Notes: generated by a model not told the origin, from the letters alone. Shown: positions 5,268 through 61,208, counted from the first letter of the whole stretch. The stretch: DNA of 63,626 nucleotides, filler included, from Pseudomonadota bacterium (GCA_043820105.1; 9 parts of 8 records of this genome joined end to end with filler, not necessarily neighbours in it), one strand, 5' to 3'. Numbers and translations: made by a program.

Positions 5268-6215
5268 TTATATTAAACTATTATTAAATGCCTTTATTAT
5301 TTCTTTTACCAGACGATGCCTGATAACATCTATGTCTGAAAAACTGCAAAATTTTATGATATCAATATTCCTTAACAAGTCATTTACATGGGCGAGACCT
5401 GATTTTTTGCCACCTGAAAGATCTATTTGAGTAACATCTCCAGTTACAACAATTTTGCAGGCAAAACCAAACCTGGTTAAAAACATTTTCATCTGTTGCA
5501 CTGTTGTGTTTTGTGCTTCATCTAAAATAATAAAAGAATTGTTTAAAGTTCTTCCTCGCATATAGGCAAGAGGGATAACTTCAATAATTCCTTTTTCAAT
5601 CATATTCATTGATTTTTCCATACCCACCATATCTTGCAGGGCATCGTACAGGGGTCTGAGATAAGGATTTATTTTTTCATGCAAGGTTCCAGGAAGATAT
5701 CCAAGGCTTTCTCCTGCTTCAACTGCTGGTCTTGTTAAAATTATACGTTCAACCAATTTCTTATTTAATGCAGCTACTGCCATTGCTACTGCTAAAAAGG
5801 TTTTTCCAGTACCCGCTGGTCCTATTCCAAAAACTAAGTCATACTTTTTTATGCTATCAACATATTCTTTTTGAGCAAGGGACTTAGGTGTTACAGGACG
5901 ATGATTAAAATCAGATAATATCTTACTCATAAAAATGTTCTTTAAATTAATTTCAGGATCAGCTTTCATTGCAAGCAGAGATTTTTCAATATCAACAGAA
6001 GATATTTTATAACCTGATTTAATACATTCAGTTAAGGCCTCCAAGGCCTGCTCAAACAACAAACAATTTTCTTCTAAACCTGATAAAACAATTTTCCCAT
6101 TTCGAAATGTTACCACTAAATCAAGCTCAGCTTCAAAATATTTTAAATTTGCATCATTTTCGCCAAAGAGTTCTTTTAAAATTTTAGGTGCTGGAGAATC
6201 TATTTCTTTATTCAT
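5268..6215 (-). CDS. phoH: PhoH-family ATPase
   Basis: GPAGTGKT, RPAVEAGESLGYLPG, LAYMRGRTL, DEAQN. Confidence 0.95.
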   Translation of the reverse strand: MNKEIDSPAPKILKELFGENDANLKYFEAELDLVVTFRNGKIVLSGLEENCLLFEQALEALTECIKSGYKISSVDIEKSLLAMKADPEINLKNIFMSKILSDFNHRPVTPKSLAQKEYVDSIKKYDLVFGIGPAGTGKTFLAVAMAVAALNKKLVERIILTRPAVEAGESLGYLPGTLHEKINPYLRPLYDALQDMVGMEKSMNMIEKGIIEVIPLAYMRGRTLNNSFIILDEAQNTTVQQMKMFLTRFGFACKIVVTGDVTQIDLSGGKKSGLAHVNDLLRNIDIIKFCSFSDIDVIRHRLVKEIIKAFNNSLI

Positions 6216-6356
6216 TAAAATTCTTTCTATTTATTTAAATAATATTTTATGAAATGAAATATGATTAATCAAGCGGGGAGTTGGAAAAAGTTGTAAGTTG
6301 TAAGTGGTAAGTGTTATTAGGGCGTTTTTTTGTTCTCACGAGAGCAAATGCTTTTA

Positions 6357-7469
6357 TCAAATAAATTCATTTAAAAAAATATTAGCTGGGCATACCCTTA
6401 TATCTTGCTTTGATACATAATCTTTCTTGCCAATTGCTGAAACCTGAAATGCTTTTACATCTTTAAACCTCTCCTTTAGGTATTTTAATCCCTTTGATAT
6501 TTCATTATCATTCCATTTTGTTTCTATGAACATAATAGGTTTGAAGTCATGTAAAATTACAAAATCAACTTCCCGGCCATCGATATCTCTGAAATATCTC
6601 AGCTCATATTCTTCACCCAAAGAATCTTGCATAAAACAAACCCATTTTAAAAGTGTCACTGCAACTAAATTTTCAAATCTAAGTCCATTTTCTTTTATCA
6701 AAGTCCAATCAAAATGATAATGTTTTTGTTCCTTTTTAACGGCTCTAATCTTAGGGGCACCAAATGGCGATATTCTAAAAATGGAATATAATCTTTCTAA
6801 AATATTAATCCAATTTGCCAAAGTTTTATTAGAAACTGGGATATCTGTTGTTATAGAATTTATTGACAATGGTGAACCAACAAGTTCCGGTAAACGAATG
6901 GATAATAATTCTAAATTTGACAGATCCTTAATGTTTTCCAATTTATTCAATTCTTCATTAATTAACCTTGTTCTATATTCCCTTGACCATCTTTTTGAGT
7001 CTATTTTGGAACTTGCAAAAAATGGTTCGGGAAATCCACCAAGTTCTATTAAAGACAAAAGATCAGCAGTGTTTTGCATTTTTAGTTCTTTAAAACTTAG
7101 TGGAAACATTCTTAGATAATGATATCGTCCCTGCAAGGAATCGCCTGAATACCTGTAATAATCAAGCTTGGCTGACCCGGCAATTAAATATTTTTTATTT
7201 TCATAGCCTTTATCAAAAAGACCTTTTAAAAAATTTCTCCAATTTTTAAATTTATGTATTTCATCTAAGATTAAAAAATTTAAATCTGGAAGTTCCTGTT
7301 TTAATATTTTTTCTCTGTCTTTGGGAACATCCCAATTTAAGTATCCTTTTTTATTTTCAATCAAACCCAAAGCAAAGGTTGTCTTTCCAACCTGACGAGG
7401 ACCACCAATAAAAACCATTTTTTTTTCCAAATCATTTTGAGTTTGCTCTTTTAAATATCTTTCAAACAT
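6357..7469 (-). CDS. AAA_14 ATPase with C-terminal DUF4143 domain
   Basis: GPRQVGKT, LDEIH, SLQGR, GGFPE, FENLV, REVDFV...IETKW. Confidence 0.85.
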   Translation of the reverse strand: MFERYLKEQTQNDLEKKMVFIGGPRQVGKTTFALGLIENKKGYLNWDVPKDREKILKQELPDLNFLILDEIHKFKNWRNFLKGLFDKGYENKKYLIAGSAKLDYYRYSGDSLQGRYHYLRMFPLSFKELKMQNTADLLSLIELGGFPEPFFASSKIDSKRWSREYRTRLINEELNKLENIKDLSNLELLSIRLPELVGSPLSINSITTDIPVSNKTLANWINILERLYSIFRISPFGAPKIRAVKKEQKHYHFDWTLIKENGLRFENLVAVTLLKWVCFMQDSLGEEYELRYFRDIDGREVDFVILHDFKPIMFIETKWNDNEISKGLKYLKERFKDVKAFQVSAIGKKDYVSKQDIRVCPANIFLNEFI

Positions 7470-30187: not shown

Positions 30188-30287
30188 NNNNNNNNNNNNN
30201 NNNNNNNNNNNNNNNNNNNNNNNNNNNNNNNTTAATTAATTAANNNNNNNNNNNNNNNNNNNNNNNNNNNNNNNNNNNNNNNNNNNN
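30188..30287. other. Artificial contig linker (also 33621-33720, 37116-37215, 42630-42729, 53130-53229, 56117-56216, 58501-58600, 61109-61208)
   Basis: Identical N44-TTAATTAATTAA-N44 spacers with stops in all six frames. Confidence 0.99.
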
Positions 30288-33620: not shown

Positions 33621-33720
33621 NNNNNNNNNNNNNNNNNNNNNNNNNNNNNNNNNNNNNNNNNNNNTTAATTAATTAANNNNNNNNNNNNNNNNNNNNNNNN
33701 NNNNNNNNNNNNNNNNNNNN

Positions 33721-36935: not shown

Positions 36936-37217
36936 GTTTTTTCACCTTGGTTAAAGGACAGCCCGAATCTAGTGGAATCGAGCCGCCCAAGACTTTCCGG
37001 TCTAAAAGAACCTTTTATTGTGTTTTAATATGCTTGGGGTTTAGCCTGCTTCAACCAAACAGTTTATTTTTTTAATCAAACAAATTCCACCTATTTTTAA
37101 TAGGTGGTTTAATGCNNNNNNNNNNNNNNNNNNNNNNNNNNNNNNNNNNNNNNNNNNNNTTAATTAATTAANNNNNNNNNNNNNNNNNNNNNNNNNNNNN
37201 NNNNNNNNNNNNNNNAT

Positions 37218-42629: not shown

Positions 42630-42729
42630 NNNNNNNNNNNNNNNNNNNNNNNNNNNNNNNNNNNNNNNNNNNNTTAATTAATTAANNNNNNNNNNNNNNN
42701 NNNNNNNNNNNNNNNNNNNNNNNNNNNNN

Positions 42730-42867
42730 TCATTATTTTTAACATATTAATGTAAGGAGTTTTAATTTATGAGTTGCAATTTTTATAAAAATTTTAGATA
42801 AAAATTTTTGGGCTAGGTGGACCACTTTTGCGTCCGATTCGTGGACCAGTTTTCAATCCGATTGGCA
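42730..42867. mobile_element. IS21-like element terminus
   Basis: Two tandem GTGGACCA..TTT..TCCGATT units ending ...GGCA; near-identical to the reverse complement of 58362-58415. Confidence 0.7.
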
Positions 42868-43197
42868 AAAGCAAACTACAATCTTTTCACTGTAAAAGGT
42901 GAAGATGTTCTGATTGATCTTTTAATAGATAGTGGAACAAGCGCTATGATTAGCCAGCAATGGGCAGATATGATGAATGGAGATGAATGCTACTCAGGAA
43001 GCAAGAGCTTTTTTAGATTTGAAAAAGTCGTAAAAGATATTATGGGCTTTGAACATGTCATCCCAACTCATCAAGGAAGAGCAGCAGAGAGAATTTTATT
43101 TACGATTATCGGCAATAAAACAAAGACAATCCCTCATAGCATTTTTACTAAAGAATTCAACAATGTATTATCCAAAGGCTTTATTCGATACAACTAA
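42868..43197 (+). pseudogene. tnaA: Second tryptophanase copy, fragment
   Basis: KANYNLFTVKGEDVLIDLL...HQGRAAERILF closely matches 25644-27020; starts at the IS end and diverges after about 90 aa. Confidence 0.85.
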
Positions 43198-43304
43198 TGA
43201 TAGAAGGGAACAAGTTAGTTTGCTAAAGGAAATAAACTTGATTTAAAACAAAAATAAATGAGTTTTTCACTTTAGTAACTTTTAAATATCACTATAAATA
43301 TGAG

Positions 43305-44903
43305 GTGATAATGGTAAAAGCCATAAAGACTAAAAGAATATTTTTTATTTTACTCGTTATTTATATTTTATTTTCTCACTTGGAGTTTTTCTTACAGCCA
43401 GGTTATTATTCAGACACCATAGGCATTGCTTTTAGCGAGGATGCTTATTATGCTTTAATTGTTTCAAAAAATATTATTAATGGTAATGGAATTAGCGCAG
43501 ATGGAATAACCTTAACCAATGGATTTCAACCTCTATGGGTATTAATAGCCACTATTCCATATTTAATATTTACTACAGATTTTTGGCAAATCACGTCTAT
43601 TTTATTTATCGGAATCCTCTTTTGGTTTTTATCAGCAGCTATATTTTTAAAAATTATAAAAGAACTCTTAGGTTATGAAATTAAAAAAAATAATATAAAG
43701 ACTTTTTATGCACTAGCTTTTTTCTTGTTTTTAACTGATATAAAAATCCAAGAATATTTTTTTAATGGACTTGAAACAGGACTTTATTGTTTCATGTTTT
43801 TATTTTTTGTCTATTTATGGATAAAGCATTGGATACCAATCTTAAATTCTAAAAACATTAAAATAAAGTATGCTTTTGAGATTGGTCTTTATAGTGGAGT
43901 ATTATTTTGGTGTAGAAACGATTCAGTTTTTATTATAGGTATATCCTTCGCTTTTTATTTCTATTATTTATTGAAATTAAAAATACAATTAACAAAGGTA
44001 ATATTTACGTCCCTTATAATGTCTATTGTTACTATTTTTATATCTTCACCTTGGCTACTTTATAACATATTTTTAACTGGCTCTATTGTTCCTCAAGGTG
44101 GTTTAGCTACAAATTCTGGCCCATATTTATTTCCTTTTGGAATTGATAAATTAAGCGAGGGATGGATACAAATGGCAAAGCTAATTATCTCACCCATATT
44201 ACCAATTGGATGGTCAGGATACTCTATCTTTTTCTATCTTTCATTTTTCATATTATTTATTATTTTATATTTTTCAAAGAAACAAATTAACATGCTATCT
44301 AGGTCAAATAGATGTTTTCTAATATTTATGAGTCTAGCTACTTTTCTATTAGCTTCATATTATTTTTTGTTTAGTGGCGCAACTTGGATGTTTCAAAGGT
44401 ATTTTATGCCAGTTAAGATTTTGTTTCAAATATTTTGGTGTTTCACTCTCCTATCGTTTTTGACAAGATTCAAACATTTGTCAAAAACAATAGTATTTGT
44501 ACTTATCTTTGCCTTATTTTTTTGGAGTTCTTATCATACTGCTAAACGCAATAAATATCCCGAGAGGTATATGTCAGAAGAGCTAAAGTTTATCAGCAAG
44601 CTCTTAGAAAAAGAGGAATATTCAAAAATTGGCATGTTTGAATCTGGAAGATTAGGATATGCATATCCCAATAATATTATTAATTTGGACGGAAAAGTTA
44701 ATAAAGAAGCATTGAAAGCGATATCAGAAGAAAAGTTTGATGACTACTTATCAAAAGCTTCTTTTGATTCTATTCTCATAAAGCCATTTCATGAGAAATG
44801 GCTAGATTTGAAGTATCCTGAATGGAAAATTAATTTCACAAGAGTTTATGACACTAATATAAAAGGGACTTCAATGCTATACAAAAAGAAGAATCTGAAA
44901 TAA
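43305..44903 (+). CDS. Polytopic membrane protein, GT-C (PMT/ArnT-like) glycosyltransferase-like
   Basis: EDAYY, TNGFQPLW, NGLET, CRND; many TM segments. Confidence 0.6.
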   Translation: MIMVKAIKTKRIFFILLVIYILFSHLEFFLQPGYYSDTIGIAFSEDAYYALIVSKNIINGNGISADGITLTNGFQPLWVLIATIPYLIFTTDFWQITSILFIGILFWFLSAAIFLKIIKELLGYEIKKNNIKTFYALAFFLFLTDIKIQEYFFNGLETGLYCFMFLFFVYLWIKHWIPILNSKNIKIKYAFEIGLYSGVLFWCRNDSVFIIGISFAFYFYYLLKLKIQLTKVIFTSLIMSIVTIFISSPWLLYNIFLTGSIVPQGGLATNSGPYLFPFGIDKLSEGWIQMAKLIISPILPIGWSGYSIFFYLSFFILFIILYFSKKQINMLSRSNRCFLIFMSLATFLLASYYFLFSGATWMFQRYFMPVKILFQIFWCFTLLSFLTRFKHLSKTIVFVLIFALFFWSSYHTAKRNKYPERYMSEELKFISKLLEKEEYSKIGMFESGRLGYAYPNNIINLDGKVNKEALKAISEEKFDDYLSKASFDSILIKPFHEKWLDLKYPEWKINFTRVYDTNIKGTSMLYKKKNLK

Positions 44904-46564
44904 AACATGTCAGGAAAGCTTTTTGCAAAGTCTATTGATTCTTTTTTCACAAGTTCAATACAAGCATCCACCTTATCGGCGTCATATAACCTGATCACTT
45001 TACTTAATATGTCATTTTCTTCTATTGTATTTCTTACGAATGCTCGATATAGTGTCTCATCTTCAAGTAGAACAACTTTAATCTTTTTTTGCTTTTCCAA
45101 GAAACTTAATTTTTCATCAGTATCTTCTTGCAAGGGTTCATATTTTACAAAAAGAATTTCATCTGTGTTTTTGGGAAGTACTTCTAAATTATGTTCATCA
45201 ATTTCGTCTGATGCTGGGATAGTTATTACAAACTCGACTCCACTTTTTGATTCAACTCTATTATCAACATTTCTAGCCTCTATTGTACCATTATGTAAAG
45301 TTACAATTTTATGGGCTGATGCTAGACCCAATCCAGTGCCAGACTTTTTGCCTTTTGTGAAAAAGGATTCGAATAGGTTTTCAATATCTTCATCTGGTAT
45401 TTGTGGACCATTGTTACCAATCACGATTTCAATACAATTATTCTCATTTTTAGTAATGGTTTTTGCATAAAACCATACATTTTTATTTTCATTGTTCCCA
45501 TAAGATTTTAACGCTTCAATTGCATTCCCAATTATATTGACAAAAACTCTCACCATTCTTTCATTATCTGCAAATGGTTTTAAATTATTTTCAATATTAT
45601 ATTCAAATGTAACAAATATATCCTTTTTACCTTGAACTGCCTGCCTAACAGAAAAATCTATTAAACCAGATAAACCATTAGGACTAGTCTCGACCTCTAC
45701 TTCTCTTGAAAAGTCTAATATGTCAGATATCATGCTTTCAGCATGTGTAATTGTTTCATCAACCGTTGCTTTTGCCTTTTGCATCGAACTTGGATTATCT
45801 TTTATTTTATCTATCATAGAAAGCATAGATTTCATACTTGTGAATGGCTTTCTTACATCATGTGCAAGTATTGAAGCTGTTTGACCTATAGCAGCAAGCT
45901 TTTCATTTTCCTTCCTTTCTCTAATCGCGATGTTCAACTTTTCAATTAGATTAAAAACTGAACCATAGAGTTGCTCAGTATAGCTACACTGTAAATTATC
46001 CGGTTCTTTAGGGAAATGAGGGTTCGATATATCAATATTATTAATATCATTTAGAAAATTAGAGATTGAAAAAGTAGTTTTATTAATAAAAAAATATCCT
46101 AAGATCAGTGTAATTATAAACAACCCTACCAATAAAATTAGCATCAAAGATATTGGTATTATTTTAGGTTTTGTCAACGACTCTAAACAATACTCTAGCT
46201 TTCCAATTTTTTTATCAAACAAAGATATTGGTACAATATTAGGCGAATTTGAACAAGAAAATCGCTTATTTTCATCATCAGGAATTGTAATGAACACATC
46301 ATTTTCTGAATAAATATTAATGTACTGTGTGTTTCCCAAAAGTAGAGTGTCATCAAAATAGCCAATAATTGAAGCCTTATCTTTAATTTTTAAAAATAAC
46401 GCAATTTTATTTGCAGCTTGTACTGCACTTGCATTGTAAGTTGCTTTAATGATTTCATTTTGTTTTAAAAAATCACTATAAACAAGAAAACTACATGAAC
46501 AAATTAGAAAAACGATTAGAATCATCATTATTCCAAAAAATAATTTCCTTTTAAGAAACCTCAA
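44846..46564 (-). CDS. Membrane sensor histidine kinase with truncated receiver domain
   Basis: 2 TM; LAHDVRKP (H-box), NIIGNAIEA, NNGP, FFTKGK..GTGLGL; REC begins VVLLEDE and breaks off. Confidence 0.9.
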   Translation of the reverse strand: MRFLKRKLFFGIMMILIVFLICSCSFLVYSDFLKQNEIIKATYNASAVQAANKIALFLKIKDKASIIGYFDDTLLLGNTQYINIYSENDVFITIPDDENKRFSCSNSPNIVPISLFDKKIGKLEYCLESLTKPKIIPISLMLILLVGLFIITLILGYFFINKTTFSISNFLNDINNIDISNPHFPKEPDNLQCSYTEQLYGSVFNLIEKLNIAIRERKENEKLAAIGQTASILAHDVRKPFTSMKSMLSMIDKIKDNPSSMQKAKATVDETITHAESMISDILDFSREVEVETSPNGLSGLIDFSVRQAVQGKKDIFVTFEYNIENNLKPFADNERMVRVFVNIIGNAIEALKSYGNNENKNVWFYAKTITKNENNCIEIVIGNNGPQIPDEDIENLFESFFTKGKKSGTGLGLASAHKIVTLHNGTIEARNVDNRVESKSGVEFVITIPASDEIDEHNLEVLPKNTDEILFVKYEPLQEDTDEKLSFLEKQKKIKVVLLEDETLYRAFVRNTIEENDILSKVIRLYDADKVDACIELVKKESIDFAKSFPDMFYFRFFFLYSIEVPFILVS

Positions 46565-46575
46565 AATAGCTCCTA

Positions 46576-47319
46576 TTATTTTTCACTTAAATGTGATAAT
46601 GGTACAACCAATAAATCACCTATAGAAGAAAAGCCAATACTGGGTAAAATTCTATTTTTCATTATTGAGTTTGGAGTGAAAACATATAGAGGAGAATTAG
46701 AGTATTGTGATATATATTTAATTAACTGTAAGCCAATAGATTTTTTTCTATACTCAGGAGTAACTGCAACGTTGAATAAAAAATCACCACCATCATTAGT
46801 TCTAAAAGTACTTGAGCATGCAATTAAACTGTCTCTATCAAATACCAACCAATGATTGCTTTCATGATTTTTTGACAAAATCTGCAATCTATCATGAAAA
46901 TACTCTGTTAATTCATCAGAAAATGAAAATGCGTTTTTCATAATATTGCAAAATGCATCAAGTTCATTGTCATTCATGTATTTTTTGCATGTTATTTTAA
47001 TTTGTACATCCTCAATTTTAGTTATTTTTTTTTCTAATTTCATGTAATGATATGAATATTTACAATCTCTAAGGTAACTATTATTAGTTGAAGCAATTAA
47101 TCCTTCTAATCCTTTATTTCTATAGAATTCTTTTATATATTTTAGTTCTTTATTATCTGGTTCCTCTTTACAAGTAAGAGGATAGGCCATATTATAATAT
47201 TGAGAATCTTTTATGCTGGGAGCGTAAAATAATCTAAAGTTTTGAATCGTAATCGATTCGTTATAGTCAATGAATATTGATTGTTCTTGTTTTAACACAT
47301 GAAGCATCTGTTCATTCAT
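46576..47319 (-). CDS. GNAT-family acetyltransferase
   Basis: LFNVAVTPEYRKKSIG acetyl-CoA motif A; ATG overlaps the upstream stop. Confidence 0.75.
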   Translation of the reverse strand: MNEQMLHVLKQEQSIFIDYNESITIQNFRLFYAPSIKDSQYYNMAYPLTCKEEPDNKELKYIKEFYRNKGLEGLIASTNNSYLRDCKYSYHYMKLEKKITKIEDVQIKITCKKYMNDNELDAFCNIMKNAFSFSDELTEYFHDRLQILSKNHESNHWLVFDRDSLIACSSTFRTNDGGDFLFNVAVTPEYRKKSIGLQLIKYISQYSNSPLYVFTPNSIMKNRILPSIGFSSIGDLLVVPLSHLSEK

Positions 47320-48781
47320 ATTTTTTCTCCAACCTAATATCTGCAAATTTAATAAATGTTGGTGATTTTACTCCAGTATTAATTATCTTCCAATCTTTTG
47401 AATAAATCAATGGTTGTTTTGGATGAAATAAAGGCAATGCAGTATATTGTAACACAATATCTTCATGTAATTCGAACATATGTTGAGCATATTCGCTATA
47501 GCTTAACGCATTGTTTAAAAGTTTATATTTTTCAATAGTTTTCTTATTGAATGGATCACCAACCGTATTCTTTATATTTGGATGAAAGAATTGTAATACA
47601 TCCAAGTTTTCCTCTACCTCCAGATACCCAAACATTAGTTCAGCATTATTATTGTACCATTCCTGCAGTGCGTCTTCAACATCTAATATTTTGGTTTCAA
47701 TTTTAATATTATTTTTTCGAAAAATGCCCTCAAAATATGATTTAACACATTCCTCTTGACCAGATCCTTTATGTATAAGTATTCTAATTCCATTTTTTGA
47801 ATCGTATGTACCTAGATCTTTGCTAATAATTTTCTTGTTACCGAAATGACCTAAAATACCATGTGGTATTATATTGTCCGTAATAATGTTACCAGGATAA
47901 CAATTTGAAACCAATTCGTACCGATTTATAAAGCTAACCAAAGACTTCCTCGCCTTTAAATCTCTAAACCGAAATGGATTCAAGTAAATAATATAAGTCT
48001 TTGCAGTATTAATAAAATGAATTTTTGCATTCTTTGTTATATTATTAATTTCCGAACTAGTTATATAATACATGAACAGATCATTGTAAATATTACTATT
48101 AAATCCATTTATTGCATCTAGTTTTGAAGCTTTAGAAAAAGTTATTCTTGAAACTAAGTTTTCAGATTTATCTTTGCTATTTAGTATAATTTTATTTTGT
48201 GTTTTTTTTGAAATATAGTATTTTCCCAAGCCATAAATCTGCTGACCGTCTCTCAAAACTATTGACAGCCTATAATCAGAAAGATTATATATTAGCCTCG
48301 GAAAGGGTTTAGTTAAAATTATTTCAAAGGATTGGTTATCAATTACTCTAATACCACTTATATTTTTTTGCAATCCTTTTAAGAATAATTCAACTCCCCT
48401 GATAATAGACAACTTTTCATATCCTGGTATTCTTCTGCTTATTGCATGCTCTAAACTAGATTTAACAATTCTTGAAGTAAGTGGTAGTCCATTTTTAAAA
48501 GTCAAATCAGATAAGTAGAATGTATACTTTTTTTGATTCTTTGAAACTTTAAAATCTTTTAAAAGTATAGGAATAGGAATATTTTTGTTGCTAATAGCAA
48601 ATAAAGGAGAATGAATTTGAATAATAAGATTTGCACTGAATATATCTTCAGATTCAACAGGATCAAGAGATTTATCTTTTGGAATTACTTGAACAGGATG
48701 CGTAATTTCAAATCCCAAAATTAATTTTATTGAAAATATAAAAATTCCTATAATAAAACTTATATTCTTCATTTTTATCAC
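47312..48781 (-). CDS. Family-5 (OppA/DppA-like) extracellular solute-binding protein
   Basis: Signal peptide, SLDP, YTFYL..LTFKNG.PLT...VK.SL, GIRVID...EI.L.KP, GLGKY. Confidence 0.8.
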   Translation of the reverse strand: MIKMKNISFIIGIFIFSIKLILGFEITHPVQVIPKDKSLDPVESEDIFSANLIIQIHSPLFAISNKNIPIPILLKDFKVSKNQKKYTFYLSDLTFKNGLPLTSRIVKSSLEHAISRRIPGYEKLSIIRGVELFLKGLQKNISGIRVIDNQSFEIILTKPFPRLIYNLSDYRLSIVLRDGQQIYGLGKYYISKKTQNKIILNSKDKSENLVSRITFSKASKLDAINGFNSNIYNDLFMYYITSSEINNITKNAKIHFINTAKTYIIYLNPFRFRDLKARKSLVSFINRYELVSNCYPGNIITDNIIPHGILGHFGNKKIISKDLGTYDSKNGIRILIHKGSGQEECVKSYFEGIFRKNNIKIETKILDVEDALQEWYNNNAELMFGYLEVEENLDVLQFFHPNIKNTVGDPFNKKTIEKYKLLNNALSYSEYAQHMFELHEDIVLQYTALPLFHPKQPLIYSKDWKIINTGVKSPTFIKFADIRLEKKYE

Positions 48782-49667
48782 TTAATATTTCTATTCAAAA
48801 TTATGTCTTCACATAGCTCACAATGTGAGGAATATTGAGGATTTAAGCCTTGACTTGAATACTCAATTCCTTTTTCTAAAAGCCTTTCTCTAAATGTTTT
48901 TCTTGTTACTTCATTATAGAAATTTGAGTTAAGGTGATACTTAAATTTACATGAAGATATATTTTCTATATTTTCACTTTTAATATTGAATAGAATATTG
49001 GAACAACAAACACTATAACCCTTTTCAGGATAATATGACAAGGTCCCAGAGTTAGGACAAACTTGATCTAATACACCTGGATCAAAACTTTGATATTTAA
49101 AATAACTTTCAGTTTCTTTTGCACGACCACTTGCTGTGACTTTTTGAATAATAACTTTAATATTAAATTCGGATGCCAAATCATCTATTTCAGTCAATTC
49201 TAAAGGAGAGGTAATGCACACAACAAATAGTAATTCAATATTCCTTTCCTTACAATAATTTCCTTACAATAATTTTTTAATTCATGAAGATTATTTTTAT
49301 TGCAACGAATTTTATGAAACCTATCCAGTGAAAGTTGAATTCTGTTTACCTTAACAAGAGAATTAAAAATTTCTTGAAATTGATTCTTATTTTCTAAAAA
49401 CCAACCATTTGTAGTAATTGTTACATTGTAACAAAAGTCTTCGATATTTTGCAAGATACTATTTATCGAACTTAAGAAGAAGGTTGGTTCTCCACCAGTA
49501 AATAACAAAGTCTTGGGTCTTAAGAAATTAACATCATCTGATATTGTCTCTATTTCACGTTTAGTAATTTTTTCTTTTCGATTTGGACCACAACTTCCAG
49601 CACAATGTTTGCAAGACAAGTTGCAATACATTCCTGGCATAATTTGAATTGTATCTATTTCTTTCAT
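48778..49667 (-). pseudogene. Radical SAM enzyme, EpeE/YydG-like, frameshifted by a 14-bp duplication
   Basis: CNLSCKHC, FTGGEP, TTNGW, LSLDRFH; C-terminal GRAK, CP...VCCS, SSHCELC; removing one TCCTTACAATAATT copy gives one 291-aa ORF. Confidence 0.85.
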
Positions 49668-49703
49668 TTTGAAAATAACCTAATAGTAAAAATTCTAATA
49701 AAT

Positions 49704-49919
49704 TTACGTTTCTCTTGTATCATCTGTGATCGTTTGAAATGCCAATCTAATAGACTTTTCAATTTTAGGATTAGAAATGCTATTATTTAATTTATTTAAA
49801 TCAATGATGTTTAGAGAGCCAACAAAGTTCATAGCAGCAAATGGTGTAATAAAAATACCTAGTGTTATTAATCTTTTCACCAAATTTTTTTTTAGCAATT
49901 TCTTTTCACTTTTAGACAT
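49704..49919 (-). CDS. 71-aa small protein, candidate RiPP precursor
   Basis: GGAGG RBS; basic N-terminus, hydrophobic stretch, polar tail; 36 nt upstream of the radical SAM gene. Confidence 0.65.
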   Translation of the reverse strand: MSKSEKKLLKKNLVKRLITLGIFITPFAAMNFVGSLNIIDLNKLNNSISNPKIEKSIRLAFQTITDDTRET

Positions 49920-50590
49920 TAGTAACCTCCAATAATTTATTAATAATTAAAAGAAAGTAATTTTTTTTTATCTAAGAATTTATAGTACTTTGAAATACAA
50001 TTAATGTAAAAATTTATAGGCCAAAATTTATGAATCAGATTATTTTTTATAAATAAAACACTTCTGTAAATAGAAAGAAAGAAAGAAAATGAATAATTTT
50101 TGTTTTACCACTTCAACCAACCCCCAGAAGAAACTAAATATTAACATTAATCCTCAATGGGATAATTATTGCTAGGTCATTTCTTCAATAATGTCAAATA
50201 ATTTATGCATAGCAGCACTTTGCTTTTCTTATCACTATTATGACACTCCTTATTTTCTACTTATTTGATAATAAGAAATCTACCATTCCAATTAGGAAAA
50301 GTTATATTGCAAAATTGAGACCATATATCATAAGATGTAATTTCAATAAGTTACAACATATTATCAATGTTAAATTCTCGGATCCTAGACACCATTCCAC
50401 TGTTGGAAATTTCCTTAAAGCTTTTTCCATATCTTTACCCATCCATAAAATGATATCACAGACAGGGTAAAAATCGGGGGAATTTGAGGGAAATAGAAAG
50501 GAATAGAAATTAGAGATAACTTCTTGTTAAAGTTAAATATTTCTTTGTTTTCAAGGGGTTTTGAAATTGTTAAAAAATGCCCTTTTAGAT

Positions 50591-50610
50591 TTCAAATCTC
50601 GTCGCTCCCG
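50591..50610 (+). other. tRNA 3' fragment (Asp-like), probable att site
   Basis: TTCAAAT-CTCGT-CGCTCCC-G reads as T-loop, T-stem, acceptor strand and G discriminator, with no 5' half. Confidence 0.55.
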
Positions 50611-50620
50611 TCAAAATTAA

Positions 50621-50655
50621 AAAAGGTTAAGTCTTCATTGACTTAGCCTTTTTTT
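50621..50655. terminator. Bidirectional rho-independent terminator
   Basis: AAAAGGTTAAGTC-TTCATT-GACTTAGCCTTTTTTT. Confidence 0.75.
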
Positions 50656-50684
50656 CTTCTAGTTTCACCATCCATTTTCTTGAT

Positions 50685-51611
50685 CTAATTTAGCTGATTT
50701 AAATAATTAGAAAGGTTTTGCAATTGCTCTTGATGCTTAGTTTTATCCATCTTCTCAATATTGTGAATTTTCCATTTAACTCCAGGTAGCTTGGAAAAAT
50801 TTCCCAGGCCTAATAAATTCCAATCTATTTCTTCTTGTTTCTTAAAATCAAGAAGAAATTTTTTTTCTTCATTTGTTAAAGTTTTTCTTATCAAACATGG
50901 CAGATTGATTTGTATATCCTCCAAATCTTTTAATGACACTTGTGCTCTGGTCATTCCCCTAAATTCCCTTTCATACACATTAGAAATATCCAAAATATTT
51001 GGATTTAATAGTTCGATAATTGGCCTGTTAGATTGAATAAGATATAGTAAAAATGTTTTTCTCAAAAGGTCTGAAATGCCTTCGTTTTCGAGTAATAATT
51101 TAATATCAAACAAGTCTCTTGGGTGCTGTCTATCCAGTGCAGCACATATTTTTCCTGCATAAATATCTTCAAAAGATAATACTTTCATTTTACAAGACAT
51201 TTTAAATTCATCTTCTACATTTTTCTTAGTTTTAAGCAAAAATGGTTTATTAGCAGAACCTCGAATTATAAGGTTAACTTCTAATTTTATTAAAATATTA
51301 TCTAAATTTAATATTAATCCTTTTAGAAAACTTGATTTGCCTATTGTTTTAAAATTAAACCTTGCGGATGGAAAATAATGTGAAACTTGTTTTGATAAAT
51401 CTTTTATGTTGCTTGTAATCTTATTAAGACTTTCATCCCTTTCTTGTATAGGGAGATAGCATAAGTCAATATCAACAGATAGTCTTGGCAAATCCCTTAT
51501 AAAATAATTTATTGCTGTCCCACCTTTTAATGCAAAATCTTCATATTCATTTAAAAGAGGCAAAACTTTCAGCAAAAGTTCAACTTGTCTATTGTAAGAA
51601 ATATTTTTCAA
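50685..51611 (-). CDS. AbiEii-family nucleotidyltransferase toxin
   Basis: FALKGGTAIN..RLSVDIDL, GKICAALDRQHPRDLFD. Confidence 0.92.
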   Translation of the reverse strand: MKNISYNRQVELLLKVLPLLNEYEDFALKGGTAINYFIRDLPRLSVDIDLCYLPIQERDESLNKITSNIKDLSKQVSHYFPSARFNFKTIGKSSFLKGLILNLDNILIKLEVNLIIRGSANKPFLLKTKKNVEDEFKMSCKMKVLSFEDIYAGKICAALDRQHPRDLFDIKLLLENEGISDLLRKTFLLYLIQSNRPIIELLNPNILDISNVYEREFRGMTRAQVSLKDLEDIQINLPCLIRKTLTNEEKKFLLDFKKQEEIDWNLLGLGNFSKLPGVKWKIHNIEKMDKTKHQEQLQNLSNYLNQLN

Positions 51612-52408
51612 AAAAGCACCTCATCATCTTCATTAATTTCCTTTGGCACGGTTATTTGATATTTCCTGTTCAAGGTTCCACCTTTTACAATTTCTCGGTT
51701 TCCCTTTCCAAAGTCAATTTTTGATAAATCCAAAGTTTTTACCCAATCAAAATTATATTTTTCAGCATAATACATAAATAGCCTTTTTGCTTTCACTGAA
51801 TTACAATTTTCAAGAAGTTTTTGAACCAGATCTGCTCTTAGATAATATAGACCTTCCATTAACAAAGCCGCTTCTTCAAAACTTTGCTTCTTTGGCAATA
51901 AATGCATCATTTCAATAGCCGCTCTTTCTTGTGAGGAGATCCTTATTGAATATTGACTGGAAACATCAAAAGAAATTAAACCCTCATCGTAGTTATTACT
52001 AAATAAATTCGTAGCGAAAAATGATATTCTCACATTCCATTTATAAGTCCTAAACCACTGAGGCAATTTGGTTCTGGCAGAAGAAAATAAAAATATTTCT
52101 GGTAGCTCCTGACTCAAATAATGAGCATGCCCGCCTAGCTGAAAGACTGTTTTAGCACCAACATGAACATCCAACTTTGAATGGTGCTGCAAAGCATACA
52201 AGCCGCCAGACCAGTTTATTTTATCCTTATTTAATTTATAAGCACCTCTACCAACTTGCTCAAGCCACATGCTTTTTACATATTTGTGAATTAAGTCCTT
52301 ACTATAACCCTTGGTTTGTAAATATTTCAAAGTACTTACAGATCCCCTAGGCCAATTTTCCAACAGCAGCTTTATTTTTGTTCTTTTTAGCTTACTCATA
52401 ATACACAT
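51608..52408 (-). CDS. AbiEi-family antitoxin
   Basis: W.EQVGRGAY, HVGAKT...GHAHYL, SQERAAIE, LLENCNSVKAKRLF; 4-nt overlap with toxin. Confidence 0.9.
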   Translation of the reverse strand: MCIMSKLKRTKIKLLLENWPRGSVSTLKYLQTKGYSKDLIHKYVKSMWLEQVGRGAYKLNKDKINWSGGLYALQHHSKLDVHVGAKTVFQLGGHAHYLSQELPEIFLFSSARTKLPQWFRTYKWNVRISFFATNLFSNNYDEGLISFDVSSQYSIRISSQERAAIEMMHLLPKKQSFEEAALLMEGLYYLRADLVQKLLENCNSVKAKRLFMYYAEKYNFDWVKTLDLSKIDFGKGNREIVKGGTLNRKYQITVPKEINEDDEVLF

Positions 52409-52650
52409 AATAGATTAAATATAAACACAAGTCAATATTTATTTATTAATAGTTGCTTTTGTTAACTCTTGGTAAGCTAATTTAATTCTTTTTAAACTCT
52501 GGCTATATCCTGGGATAATCCAGCAATTGAAATTAGTGCCAGAGTACATTATGTGAGATTGTGCTTATTTTATCAATATTTCAATTTTGATAGCAGGTTC
52601 TTCGATTAAATCTAAAGTAATTATTGTTTTATAGCTGGTTTTATTTGAAA

Positions 52651-52923
52651 TTATGTGAAATTAGTGCCAGAGCATATTATAAGAGCATTGGGATCACAAA
52701 CAAGATATTTATCAACCTTATCATGGATAATATTTACCATCCATTGGGCCATTGGTCCCTCTTCAAAAGTAATACTTTTTTTACCCTTTATTGAACCAAT
52801 ATATTTTAAAACCATCAGCTCACTTGTAGAAACTGTCTCTGTCTCCAATAACTTGCCTCTTAAGTTAATTCTTGAAAAAGTTATTGACTTTGAATGCAAA
52901 TCTGCTCCAATATAACTATTCAT
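52651..52923 (-). mobile_element. IS110-family transposase N-terminal remnant
   Basis: YIGADLHSK...TFEEG...VCDP (DEDD RuvC-like start), truncated at about 80 aa. Confidence 0.75.
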
Positions 52924-53229
52924 TGCGTCTCTCCTTCTTGTATCTTAATAATAATATTGTTATACAACAATTTATACAGAAGCGAGAGATACTTTTCATT
53001 ATAATGGCACTATGAACATAATCTCTAAAAAAACGCTACCAATCCACCTATTCCATGATCTTCAAATTGAAATAAACTGGGAGTGAGCAATAAAAAGATG
53101 GCAAGACTGAGGTATAAAACGCATTCCGGNNNNNNNNNNNNNNNNNNNNNNNNNNNNNNNNNNNNNNNNNNNNTTAATTAATTAANNNNNNNNNNNNNNN
53201 NNNNNNNNNNNNNNNNNNNNNNNNNNNNN

Positions 53230-55903: not shown

Positions 55904-56216
55904 GATTGAATACCAAAAGAAGCTACCTGGTGGCAGGCTTAATTGAATTAGTAGTATCCTTTCAAATTATTTAAGTCTTGCAGTAAAAATTCAATCATTT
56001 CTGGAGTAACAATTGGATCTTGGCAATCTGCACAGTACATAAGATTTTCCTCATGCCAATAGGTTCGATAAACTTCGTAAAAGGACCCTTTACTTCGAGC
56101 AATATCGTAAGTTCCANNNNNNNNNNNNNNNNNNNNNNNNNNNNNNNNNNNNNNNNNNNNTTAATTAATTAANNNNNNNNNNNNNNNNNNNNNNNNNNNN
56201 NNNNNNNNNNNNNNNN

Positions 56217-58223
56217 AGCAACTCCAATTTCAGCAGAATCAGCAGGAACAAAAGATCCAATATGAGCAAGCAGGGTTATAAGCGCTACCTGCCGCATAAG
56301 AGTGGACTTTCCAGCCATATTAGGCCCTGTTAAAATGATCATATTCTTTTCTTCGTCATTAATCTCAATATCATTTGGAATAAATCTACCACAAGCTTCT
56401 GTTAGCTCAACAACAGGATGCCTGCCCTCTTTTATTATTATTTTTTTATCATCAATAATCTTTGGTTTAACATATTTTCTTTCTATGGCTGTAAGTGCAA
56501 AGGAAATAAGTAAATCTAGTTTTGATAGGCAGTGAGCTGTCTTTTGAATTCTAGTATTATGTTTTAAAATTTCATTTCTAAGCTTAGAAAACTCTTCATG
56601 CTCTACTTCTTTTCTCTGACTTGAAGCATTTAAAATTTTATCTTCCAGTTCCTTAAGTTCAGGAGTTATATAACGTTCTTGATTAACAAGGGTCTGTTTT
56701 CTAATGTAATGATCAGGGACCTGACTAATATTTGCTTTTGTAACCTCAATATAATAGCCAAAAACTTTGTTATATCTTATTTTCAGGGAATTAATTCCAG
56801 TGCTTTGGCGTTGGCTTGCTTCCATTTGTAAAAGGATATTGCGCGAGTTTCCTTCAATTTCATTTAGTTCGTCAAGTTTTTGGTGATATCCTTTTTTGAA
56901 AATACCACCTTCAGTAATGGTAATTGGGGGATCATCAATAATGGCCTGGTCTATCAAGTTATATACATCCTCACATGGGTCAAGATCATTATATATTTCC
57001 TTAATAAGATCTGAGGAGTCAAAACTTAGCAGTTCATCTTTTATTTTAGGTAGTAAAGCCATTGAGGTCTTCAAATGAACAAGATCTCTAGGATTAAGGA
57101 CTTTTGTGGATATTTTAGCATTAATTCTTTCGAGATCATAAATTGATTCTAGTGATTTTTGAATATTTTCGGATTTAAATCTTTTTTTATAAAAATCTGC
57201 AACAGCATCTTGTCTTTTTTCTATCTTAGCTTTAAATCTTAAGGGAAACCTCAGCCAATCTTTTAATAATCTAGCTCCCATACTTGTCTTTGTTTTATCA
57301 ATAGCCCAAACTAGTGAATTTATTTTTTTACCGTCAGTAAGGGATGATAAGATTTCCAGATTTTTTATAGTCATATTATCAAGAATCATATTTTCTGATA
57401 TTTCATAATATGATAATTTTGAAATATGAGTAAGCTCCTCTCCTCTTTGTTTAACTATATATTTTAATAATAGCTTTGAGGCTGAGAGCAGTGATCCTAA
57501 ACCAATATCTCTAATTTCTTCCAAATTCTGTATGTTCTGTATTATTGGATTAATATTATTAGCGTCATATTGATTTTCTTTTTTTTCATTTTCAAAAAAT
57601 GTTACAAATCTTAAGCGAAGAGTGTTTTCAAGTCTTAAGAGCTTATTGTTTTTAATCAGTTTTTTTAAATCACTATAGATAATAACTTCTTTAGGATCAA
57701 TTTTTTCGATTTCATCACAAATCAATTTTTCTGATTTTGTATATGTTGCCTTTAGCCTTCCGATAGAATAATCAATAAAAGAAATAGAGAAGGTGTCGTT
57801 TTCTATAAAAAGGGATAAAATGAAATTATTGTCTTCTGCATTTATTTCCAAAAAATCATCAAGCAAACCAGGACTTATAACCTTTTGAACTTGTCTTTTA
57901 ACAATTCCTGTCGCCAGTTTTGGATCTTCAATTTGGTCACAAATAGCAACTTTTAATCCTGAATTAACGAGCTTGGATATATAGCTTTTTGCACTATGAT
58001 GAGGCACACCACAAAGGGGAACAGGGTTGGGACTGTTTTTATTTCTTGTTGTTAAGGCAATGTTTAATACTTTTGATGCAAGGATAGCATCATCAGAAAA
58101 CATTTCATAAAAATCACCAAGCCTGAAAAATAAAATTGCATCTTGATAATCTTTTTTTATCTCCCAATATTGTTTCATCATGGGAGTTAAGTTACTGTTT
58201 TTTTCTACATTCAATTTTGACAT
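56217..58223 (-). CDS. mutS: DNA mismatch repair protein MutS, 3' truncated
   Basis: TPMMKQY, FRLGDFYEMF, GRHPVVE, TGPNMAGKST. Confidence 0.97.
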
Positions 58224-58500: not shown

Positions 58501-58627
58501 NNNNNNNNNNNNNNNNNNNNNNNNNNNNNNNNNNNNNNNNNNNNTTAATTAATTAANNNNNNNNNNNNNNNNNNNNNNNNNNNNNNNNNNNNNNNNNNNN
58601 ATAAATGAGGTATGCAAGTATTTACCT

Positions 58628-61081: not shown

Positions 61082-61208
61082 CAAAAACCTTTTAAATCAA
61101 ATAAGCATNNNNNNNNNNNNNNNNNNNNNNNNNNNNNNNNNNNNNNNNNNNNTTAATTAATTAANNNNNNNNNNNNNNNNNNNNNNNNNNNNNNNNNNNN
61201 NNNNNNNN

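Follow-up and report, generated by a model that had tools for sequence, protein, structure and literature searches.

Gene order at the locus and the interrupted radical SAM gene

The stretch of DNA studied here, 63,626 nucleotides (nt) in full and called the window below, comes from the assembly of a Pseudomonadota bacterium (GCA_043820105.1) and carries five co-oriented open reading frames (ORFs) on its minus strand, between positions 44846 and 49919. In the direction of transcription these are a small ORF, a gene for a radical S-adenosylmethionine (SAM) enzyme that is broken into two pieces, and genes for a solute-binding protein (SBP), a GNAT acetyltransferase and a sensor histidine kinase (Table 1). 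All of them lie on a single contig of 10,400 nt that is bounded by runs of N (42730-53129). Pfam matches above the curated cut-offs were obtained for four genes, and nothing was found for the small ORF or the second radical SAM piece. The small ORF and the radical SAM gene are separated by 36 nt. The latter overlaps the SBP gene by 4 nt, or ends 5 nt before it if the SBP starts at the ATG of residue 4. The SBP and GNAT genes overlap by 35 nt, or by 8 nt with a GNAT start at residue 10, and 11 nt lie between the GNAT and kinase genes. An earlier annotation of this DNA (the original prediction) had seen here a modified-peptide signalling operon of five co-oriented genes with overlapping or short junctions of up to 36 nt, and the ORF map and the Pfam searches bear out this layout. 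Four proteins of the locus were looked up by exact sequence in the protein collection, and all four were singletons.

Table 1. Features of the locus contig, and the linkers that join the contigs of the window
Feature	Position in the window	Strand	Evidence or remarks
Small ORF, candidate precursor, 71 amino acids (aa)	49704-49919	-	GGAGG 6 nt before ATG; no Pfam or NCBIfam match
Radical SAM, N-terminal piece, 155 aa	49200-49667	-	PF04055, 37.3 bits (cut-off 29.5)
Tandem duplication, 14 nt	49245-49275		Tandem Repeats Finder
Radical SAM, C-terminal piece, 147 aa	48778-49221 (stop-to-stop frame 48781-49263)	-	Family alignment
SBP_bac_5 solute-binding protein	47312-48781	-	PF00496, 62.6 bits (cut-off 32.4), E 4.7e-17
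GNAT acetyltransferase	46576-47346	-	PF00583, 28.9 bits (cut-off 20.7)
Sensor histidine kinase	44846-46564	-	HisKA, 34.1 bits; HATPase_c, 69.7 bits
AbiEii/AbiEi pair (type IV toxin-antitoxin / abortive infection), complete	50685-52408	-	Pfam; just upstream of the cassette
Convergent membrane protein, 532 aa	43305-44903		Weak match to a putative glycosyltransferase family
Beta-eliminating lyase (tryptophanase-like) fragment, 126 aa	42817-43246		Pfam PF01212, positions 1-72 of 288
Linkers	30188-30287, 33621-33720, 37116-37215, 42630-42729, 53130-53229, 56117-56216, 58501-58600, 61109-61208		

The radical SAM frame is broken by a perfect 14-nt tandem duplication (Tandem Repeats Finder: period 14, 2.2 copies, 100% match, score 62), across which the residues NYCKE are read in both frames. 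The N-terminal piece keeps the true frame for its first ~136 codons, whereas its final 19 codons, past the duplication, are read in the wrong frame. When the 136 in-frame residues were joined to 155 residues of the C-terminal frame, a repaired protein of ~291 aa was obtained, the size given in the original prediction (291 aa). Aligned to a family of 30 members (alignment A1, described below), the C-terminal frame matched template columns 135-284 with an hhalign probability of 99.95% (E 2.2e-38). The family hidden Markov model (HMM) scored the N-terminal piece at 171.6 bits and the C-terminal piece at 146.9 bits. At the sequence level, the two pieces are a single family member. Indeed, each of the 30 columns conserved to at least 85% in an alignment of 84 family sequences keeps the family residue in the window pieces, including those of CxxxCxHC, GGE, TNG, SxDxxH, CP, CC and CxxC. 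The motif series of the Bacillus subtilis peptide epimerase EpeE/YydG, which the original prediction had recognised in the repaired protein, is thus retained at all of these columns.

As assembled, the enzyme gene cannot yield the full protein; the copy carries no further sign of decay. Since all the conserved residues are still present, either the gene was damaged only recently or the assembly is at fault. That the frameshift is an artefact of assembly or sequencing, with an intact enzyme gene and a functional operon in the living organism, is possible but somewhat doubtful. Such an origin would agree with the intact state of all 30 strongly conserved columns in both halves, with the lack of any other stop or shift in the gene and with its place in a fragmented assembly, on a short contig of 10.4 kb. 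Homopolymer or base-call errors do not, however, typically take the form of a perfect 14-nt tandem duplication, the deposited gene calls show the identical split (both exact halves are present in the protein collection), and the receiver domain of the kinase also looks damaged. In one groundwater metagenome with a small share of the sequence, the reads placed on the locus spanned just 127 nt, at the 5' end of the SBP gene, and none of them crossed the duplication; no RNA data set containing the sequence was listed. With its enzyme gene frameshifted and its kinase receiver apparently truncated, the copy in this window is probably inactive.

Relationship of the enzyme to EpeE

The N-terminal piece alone found YydG as its best match both in NCBIfam (TIGR04078, 57.1 bits, cut-off 300) and in the PDB (8AI1, E 1.5e-9). 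Its membership of PF04055 is shown by the CxxxCxHC motif and by a score above the gathering cut-off. The C-terminal piece alone had no match in Pfam, NCBIfam or the PDB. In word-index searches for longer proteins the N-terminal half found one weak match, the C-terminal half found none, and a single-protein locus scan of representative genomes with the N-terminal half returned only an unrelated Clostridium locus of the NirJ/Ahb type. A HMMER search with the N-terminal piece against 1.84 billion representatives yielded 1330 matches at E <= 1e-3 and 99 at E <= 1e-10, the best of them mostly 275-300 aa long. Thirty of the matches were aligned (A1) and served as the basis of the family model. At a score of at least 200 bits, this model found at least 76 of 149 representative clusters, 46 of the 76 not having been used in building it.

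Several lines of evidence link this family to EpeE over its full length. TIGR04078 was the top NCBIfam match in all 30 family members scanned, full length. When the A1 profile was compared with the PDB, YydG (8AI1) was matched with E 7.2e-31, profile positions 4-284 of 288 being placed on chain residues 28-324 (281 of 288 positions); the next structures were viperin-like, with 50 bits and over the N-terminal part only. Further support is provided by an AlphaFold2 model of one family member, P0003, which had a pLDDT (predicted local distance difference test) of 95 and a predicted template modelling (TM) score of 0.92. In a Foldseek search with this model the top nine matches were all EpeE chains (E ~2e-15, TM 0.61-0.73), followed by a viperin-like structure in tenth place (4e-8). 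The CPN, CCS and SSxCxxC motifs of the family, which lie in a twitch-like C-terminal domain with one auxiliary cluster, align with the corresponding cysteines of EpeE/YydG. The cysteines of CPN, CC and CxxC are conserved in 77-83 of the 84 family sequences and are present in the window protein. In the profile alignment the CCS motif falls on construct residues 247/248 of the EpeE chain, which we take to be native C222/C223, assuming a 25-residue tag offset from the chain length. C223 of EpeE donates the hydrogen atom that quenches the C-alpha radical of the substrate (PMC13012085).

Judged by sequence and model, the enzyme is a full-length EpeE homologue with the same cofactor layout and the donor cysteine, and it belongs to a separate family that is not equivalogous to TIGR04078. 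As had been proposed, the enzyme is EpeE-like and carries the cysteine pair of the hydrogen-donor site. EpeE is its closest characterised relative, and neither the HMM nor the structure searches placed it with a radical SAM family outside the peptides that are made on the ribosome and modified after translation (RiPPs). As a control of the TIGR04078 model, the B. subtilis protein scored above the cut-off; no protein did so over 401 genomes of the Clostridium puniceum phylum. NCBIfam 20.0 holds no model that claims the enzyme family.

The comparison with the B. subtilis system (epeXEPAB = yydFGHIJ; EpeE/YydG structures PDB 8AI1-8AI6) reveals likenesses in the enzyme and differences in nearly everything around it. 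Common to both are the full-length homology and fold, the CxxxCxHC motif, four C-terminal cysteines that align with the single auxiliary cluster domain of EpeE, the Cys-Cys pair at C222/C223 and the position of the enzyme gene directly downstream of a small ORF. The structure-based identity is only ~17%, and the family members are ~290 aa long as against 319 aa for EpeE. In the epipeptide system a dedicated protease removes the leader, whereas the precursor proposed here has a Sec-like signal; and where B. subtilis has the EpeP protease and the EpeAB ABC transporter, the present cassette has a binding protein and a hybrid kinase. Epipeptides and EpeE-type epimerases are said to occur only in Bacillota, and just one of these enzymes has been characterised (PMC13012085), whereas the present family occurs in lineages of diderm metagenome-assembled genomes (MAGs).

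Conservation of the gene neighbourhood and properties of the partner proteins

Representative genomes were scanned for related loci with an alignment of four proteins (A3). Nine loci were found, eight of them good (E <= 2e-46), in MAGs labelled Elusimicrobia (five), Bdellovibrionaceae, Deltaproteobacteria and Myxococcales. A metagenome scan added five more good loci, one of which (L028) scored identically to L019 for all three proteins and was treated as the same sequence and counted once, so that 12 distinct loci were available in total. L027 (28% identity, N-terminal part only) and L033 (a 1.4-kb fragment) were left out of the count, and the distant radical SAM loci L034-L107 were used for the control set. 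HMMs were built from the neighbouring ORFs and searched over all loci, and Pfam was run on representatives.

A small ORF precedes the enzyme gene in 10 of the 12 loci. An SBP-like gene for a protein of ~460-490 aa is present in 11, the sole exception, L022, ending 3 kb after the enzyme gene. A kinase gene (~540-720 aa) was found in all nine loci that extend far enough, and its start overlaps the stop of the SBP gene by 4-7 nt in the relatives. The binding protein and the kinase are the only partners always present among the relatives. Directly after the enzyme gene lies a slot of variable content. Seven of the 12 loci have a gene for a GNAT-like protein of ~205-284 aa there. A beta-lactamase family gene takes its place in L019 and L023, a transglutaminase-TPR gene in L025 and two TldD/PmbA genes in L022, and L030 has no gene between those of the enzyme and the SBP. 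No match to the SBP-like, GNAT-like or kinase HMMs turned up in the 75 control loci, which hold other radical SAM genes from the same scan, span 591 kb together and in 36 cases are at least 8 kb long. The association of a radical SAM enzyme, a family-5 SBP, a kinase and a small upstream ORF, for which the original prediction had suggested a neighbourhood search, is therefore conserved in the 12 loci and absent from the 75 controls. Beyond the cassette, the flanks hold nothing common to the relatives.

The original prediction had also contrasted the partner set with that of epeXEPAB and noted the lack of a permease. This holds on the 10,400-nt locus contig, where no ABC permease-like ORF was seen, and a protease and ABC exporter/immunity pair of the epeXEPAB type was found neither on that contig nor as a conserved feature of the 12 loci. 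These findings also bear on another explanation, by which the product of the cassette would be a membrane-active toxin or bacteriocin of the epipeptide kind that serves mainly to kill and not to signal, the SBP and the kinase sensing it for autoinduction or immunity as NisK senses nisin. We regard a toxin as unlikely, though some observations fit it. The product of EpeE is antimicrobial (PMC13012085, PMC7026026), in four of the 12 loci the variable slot is taken by peptidase-like genes (TldD/PmbA, beta-lactamase family, transglutaminase core), and L024, L029 and L032 have ABC-exporter-like genes a few kb away at most, one protein of which was checked with Pfam. Against a toxin speaks that neither an immunity gene nor a dedicated exporter gene is conserved with the cassette, whose only constant partners are the binding protein and the kinase, and that a Sec-like signal would release the peptide into the periplasm of its own producer.

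In several Elusimicrobia loci, further small ORFs were observed downstream of the hybrid kinase gene (L024, 14737-20194; L025, 6425-7426; L026, 15303-17280). L024 and L025 have, after these ORFs, another radical SAM gene that is unrelated to the first and, in L024, of the radical SAM/SPASM type; L024 also has two ABC-type proteins of ~600 aa. The downstream ORFs and the second radical SAM gene may form a second RiPP cluster under the control of the kinase.

The SBP of the window is a putatively exported family-5 protein with no transporter genes beside it. Its structure matched an SBP_bac_5 cluster of the Atlas with a TM score of 0.86, and its sequence is 34% identical to the SBP of L023. An HMM built from the ~470-aa proteins of five relatives, with the window SBP left out, matched the window SBP with E 3.5e-9. 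Among the nine SBP-like proteins of relatives scanned with PF00496, those of L023 (E 4.8e-18), L029 (1.6e-5) and L032 (2e-4) were matched and the other six were not. The motifs Q.H.PLF and GLG are invariant in all 11 SBP-like sequences, and by eye their N-termini look signal-like or, in several, lipobox-like. By sequence, the relatives' SBP-like proteins are divergent family-5 SBPs. A single-protein locus scan with the window SBP gave only a weak match in a Neisseria MAG.

The sensor region of the window kinase, ~110 aa long, lies between two hydrophobic segments; the HisKA and HATPase domains and a C-terminal tail come after it. BLAST comparisons with the kinases of the relatives gave E values from 6e-12 to 1e-4. 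In the relatives ~105 residues follow the ATPase domain that have no Pfam match. This C-terminus is predicted to adopt a (beta-alpha)5 fold (pLDDT 91.9), and receiver domains came top among the Foldseek matches listed (TM 0.64-0.77, best E 3.7e-4). Two of the relatives' kinases carry two receiver-like domains. The tail of the window kinase follows a receiver-like pattern, judged by eye, for ~54 residues, then diverges and ends 24 residues later. The last 58 nt of its gene overlap the convergent membrane protein gene. The tail had no match in Pfam or the PDB, and no continuation was found in other frames. By eye, the receiver domain of the window kinase appears truncated.

The GNAT protein of the window, which probably starts at residue 10, matched GNAT clusters of the Atlas with TM 0.8. 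Among the GNAT-like proteins of the relatives, weak Pfam GNAT matches were obtained in L020, L021 and L026. Such proteins are sometimes fused to the enzyme. In eleven representative proteins of 466-517 aa (P0087, P0091, P0097, P0103, P0105, P0110, P0112, P0119, P0125, P0132 and P0151) the EpeE-like enzyme is followed by a C-terminal domain without Pfam match that is a homologue of the GNAT-like proteins encoded separately elsewhere (hhalign 97.9%, E 3.2e-13).

The small ORF of the window encodes a basic N-terminus, a hydrophobic stretch of ~13 residues that ends in small residues, and then ~42 residues. The corresponding ORFs of the relatives (63-100 aa) immediately precede the enzyme gene, and most have a Shine-Dalgarno sequence. 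All ten share with the window ORF a basic start, 12-14 hydrophobic residues with a G-hydrophobic-F/Y pattern, and small residues. After the hydrophobic part there is often an AxA-like motif, followed by A..(Y/F)(V/I)..L and a variable tail of ~40 residues (alignment A8). No residue of a cross-link type, such as Cys, is common to all of the peptides. Judged by eye, the small ORF seems to encode a Sec signal peptide with a mature peptide behind it, in keeping with the exported peptide of the original prediction.

A different role of the small ORF has to be considered. MgrB and SafA are models of small membrane modulators of kinases, and the ORF could likewise encode a single-pass membrane protein that modulates the kinase, the enzyme acting elsewhere, for example on the binding protein or on a metabolite. 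The best-conserved part of the ORF is its hydrophobic N-terminal third with a few residues after it, and L031 and L022 lack such an ORF; both facts would suit a modulator. We nevertheless hold this to be improbable. The small ORF stands directly upstream of the enzyme gene in 10 of the 12 loci, ~12-14 hydrophobic residues followed by small ones resemble, by eye, a signal peptide more than a membrane helix, and the closest structural relative of the enzyme binds a peptide substrate (structure titles; PMC13012085). For the small ORF as an exported substrate of the enzyme, the bufferins provide a precedent. Sec-type signals are described as rare in RiPP precursors and as established for bufferins, and bulky modifications would hinder the passage through Sec (PMC11626156). 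Epimerisation adds no bulk, so that an epimerised peptide should still be able to pass. Bufferins, too, carry a Sec-type signal, are modified in the cytoplasm and are released into the periplasm of diderm bacteria; they differ in being Cys-rich metal binders that are modified by an MNIO and a DUF2063 protein, not by a radical SAM enzyme, and in lacking a binding protein or kinase as partner (PMC11626156).

In L031 an ORF of 209-317 aa (6023-6976, plus strand) replaces the small ORF directly upstream of the enzyme gene. It has no Pfam match and contains three repeats of a T-I-(T/A)-W-type motif. It may be a multi-core precursor.

Of the complex of SBP, peptide and periplasmic kinase domain that the original prediction had suggested for modelling, the pair of binding protein and peptide was modelled. 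Residues 25-489 of the window SBP and residues 30-71 of the peptide were used, each with an 11-row alignment. The predicted complex had an ipSAE score of 0.34 (0.32-0.35 in three runs), and the best of three controls reached 0.02. The runs agreed in at least 77% of the contacts, and the pLDDT of the partner was ~50. Of the solved complexes used for calibration, 58 of 80 reached the pass mark, as did two of 110 mismatched pairs. The prediction gives weak support to a complex.

Proposed peptide signalling and the surrounding genes

On balance we lean towards reading the locus as one copy of a conserved peptide-signalling cassette in diderm bacteria that are known only from metagenomes. The cassette would consist of a small Sec-signal-like protein, an EpeE-like enzyme, a variable tailoring or processing gene, a transporter-less family-5 SBP and a hybrid kinase. 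Starting from the observed homologies, synteny and fusion, the chemistry, export, binding and output may be pictured as follows, along the lines of the original prediction, in which an exported peptide was epimerised, possibly acetylated, and presented by the binding protein to the kinase in a putative quorum-sensing or kin-recognition circuit. Modification by the enzyme would take place in the cytoplasm, where one residue of the peptide or a few would most likely be epimerised from L to D. The peptide would be exported through Sec, with cleavage of its signal peptide. In the periplasm the binding protein would capture the modified peptide and dock on the sensor domain of the kinase, which would then signal via its own receiver domain to an output. 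A more specific proposal, which we put forward only tentatively, is that diderm bacteria of several phyla use a Sec-exported ribosomal peptide, with D-amino acids made by the EpeE-like enzyme, as a private signal in the periplasm or between cells, the stereochemistry being read by the orphan SBP that switches the hybrid kinase. In a still bolder extension, the 14-nt tandem duplication may serve as a reversible on/off switch of signal production.

LuxP/LuxQ and TorT/TorS are binding-protein-dependent histidine kinase systems, in which, as here, the gene of a periplasmic SBP stands beside that of a hybrid sensor kinase without a transporter. Their SBPs are of other classes and bind small molecules, whereas the present SBPs are divergent members of family 5 (peptide/nickel type) and the proposed ligand would be encoded in the same operon. 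In the peptide autoinducer systems of Gram-positive bacteria, such as nisin/NisK and Agr, a modified ribosomal peptide is sensed by a membrane kinase of the same cluster, as would be the case here. There the kinase binds the peptide directly and dedicated transporters are used; here a Sec-type signal, an intermediary SBP and a diderm envelope would be involved.

Several observations weigh against peptide signalling of this kind. The family scores ~60-90 bits with TIGR04078, whose cut-off is 300 (best E 1.9e-25; P0003, 64 bits), and with scores so far below the cut-off the chemistry may differ from epimerisation. The position under D210 of EpeE, a residue mutated in PDB entry 8AI6 according to the structure listing, is not conserved and, as read from the alignment, has changed to G in the window enzyme. 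The signal peptides were assigned by eye, the peptides share little beyond their N-terminal third, and two of the 12 loci (L031, L022) are without the small ORF. Between the GNAT protein of the window and its GNAT-like counterparts in the relatives no homology was detectable (E 0.05-0.23), and the genes differ in position. No response regulator gene is conserved beside the cassette, and the relatives are all MAG or metagenome contigs. As to the predicted complex, only seven of the 80 solved complexes passed with a score of at most 0.60, and so did both of the mismatched pairs that passed.

What is new here, as far as the sequences tell, is an EpeE-type RiPP enzyme family with a new type of precursor and new partners. 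It would be a sister family of EpeE in Elusimicrobia-, Bdellovibrio- and Myxococcus-type MAGs, with Sec-like precursors and with an SBP and a hybrid kinase as fixed partners. No description of the cassette or of the family was found in the literature searched, which excluded subscription journals (the EpeE structure paper among them) and supplements. If the proposed signalling is true, it would link RiPP chemistry, in the form of D-residues, to two-component signalling in the diderm periplasm, and a ligand could be assigned to a group of solute-binding proteins that are now orphans. In the more specific form, with the stereochemistry read by the SBP, the peptide would found a new class among RiPP autoinducers, and an epimerised peptide would for the first time be seen to be sensed through a binding protein. 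For the genome of the window the meaning is more modest, its copy having probably been broken recently.

The complete AbiEii/AbiEi pair upstream of the cassette raises the question of a role in anti-phage defence, with a radical-SAM-matured periplasmic peptide as in the HXS system. A precedent exists for a periplasmic effector matured by a radical SAM enzyme (PMC13128918), and the AbiE pair stands on the same contig. We consider a defence function very improbable. PADLOC 2.0 reported no system-specific match, only a generic one of the radical SAM core to pVip (~39 bits) and one weak kinase match. Moreover, HxsC matched the enzyme only weakly (25 bits), and the flanks are not conserved among the relatives.

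As to the window as a whole, it is a concatenation of at least nine contigs, joined by eight identical linkers of 100 nt (Table 1), each with two runs of 44 N on either side of a 12-nt spacer that has stop codons in every frame. Because the contigs are joined in this way, genes outside 42730-53129 are not true neighbours of the locus. The methylase, SNF2 helicase and MutS genes of the window lie on such other contigs, and the apparent truncation of MutS (56169-58223) is accounted for by a linker. The closest match of MutS among representative genomes, with 41% identity, is to a MAG, and no close relative of the organism was present in the collections searched. The enzyme family is absent from all three genomes of the phylum to which this MAG belongs.

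On the locus contig, 765 nt without a convincing ORF (49920-50684) lie between the first gene of the cassette and the AbiE pair. Matches to promoter- and terminator-like patterns, including those in this interval, were no more frequent than in shuffled sequence, and a scan of the contig with Rfam gave no match. An ORF at 52651-52923 was suspected to be a transposase fragment, but had no Pfam match and is not claimed as such. At the other end of the contig the lyase gene is cut to about its first 100 codons and is followed by a second short ORF in another frame, which makes it a further broken gene on the 10.4-kb contig.

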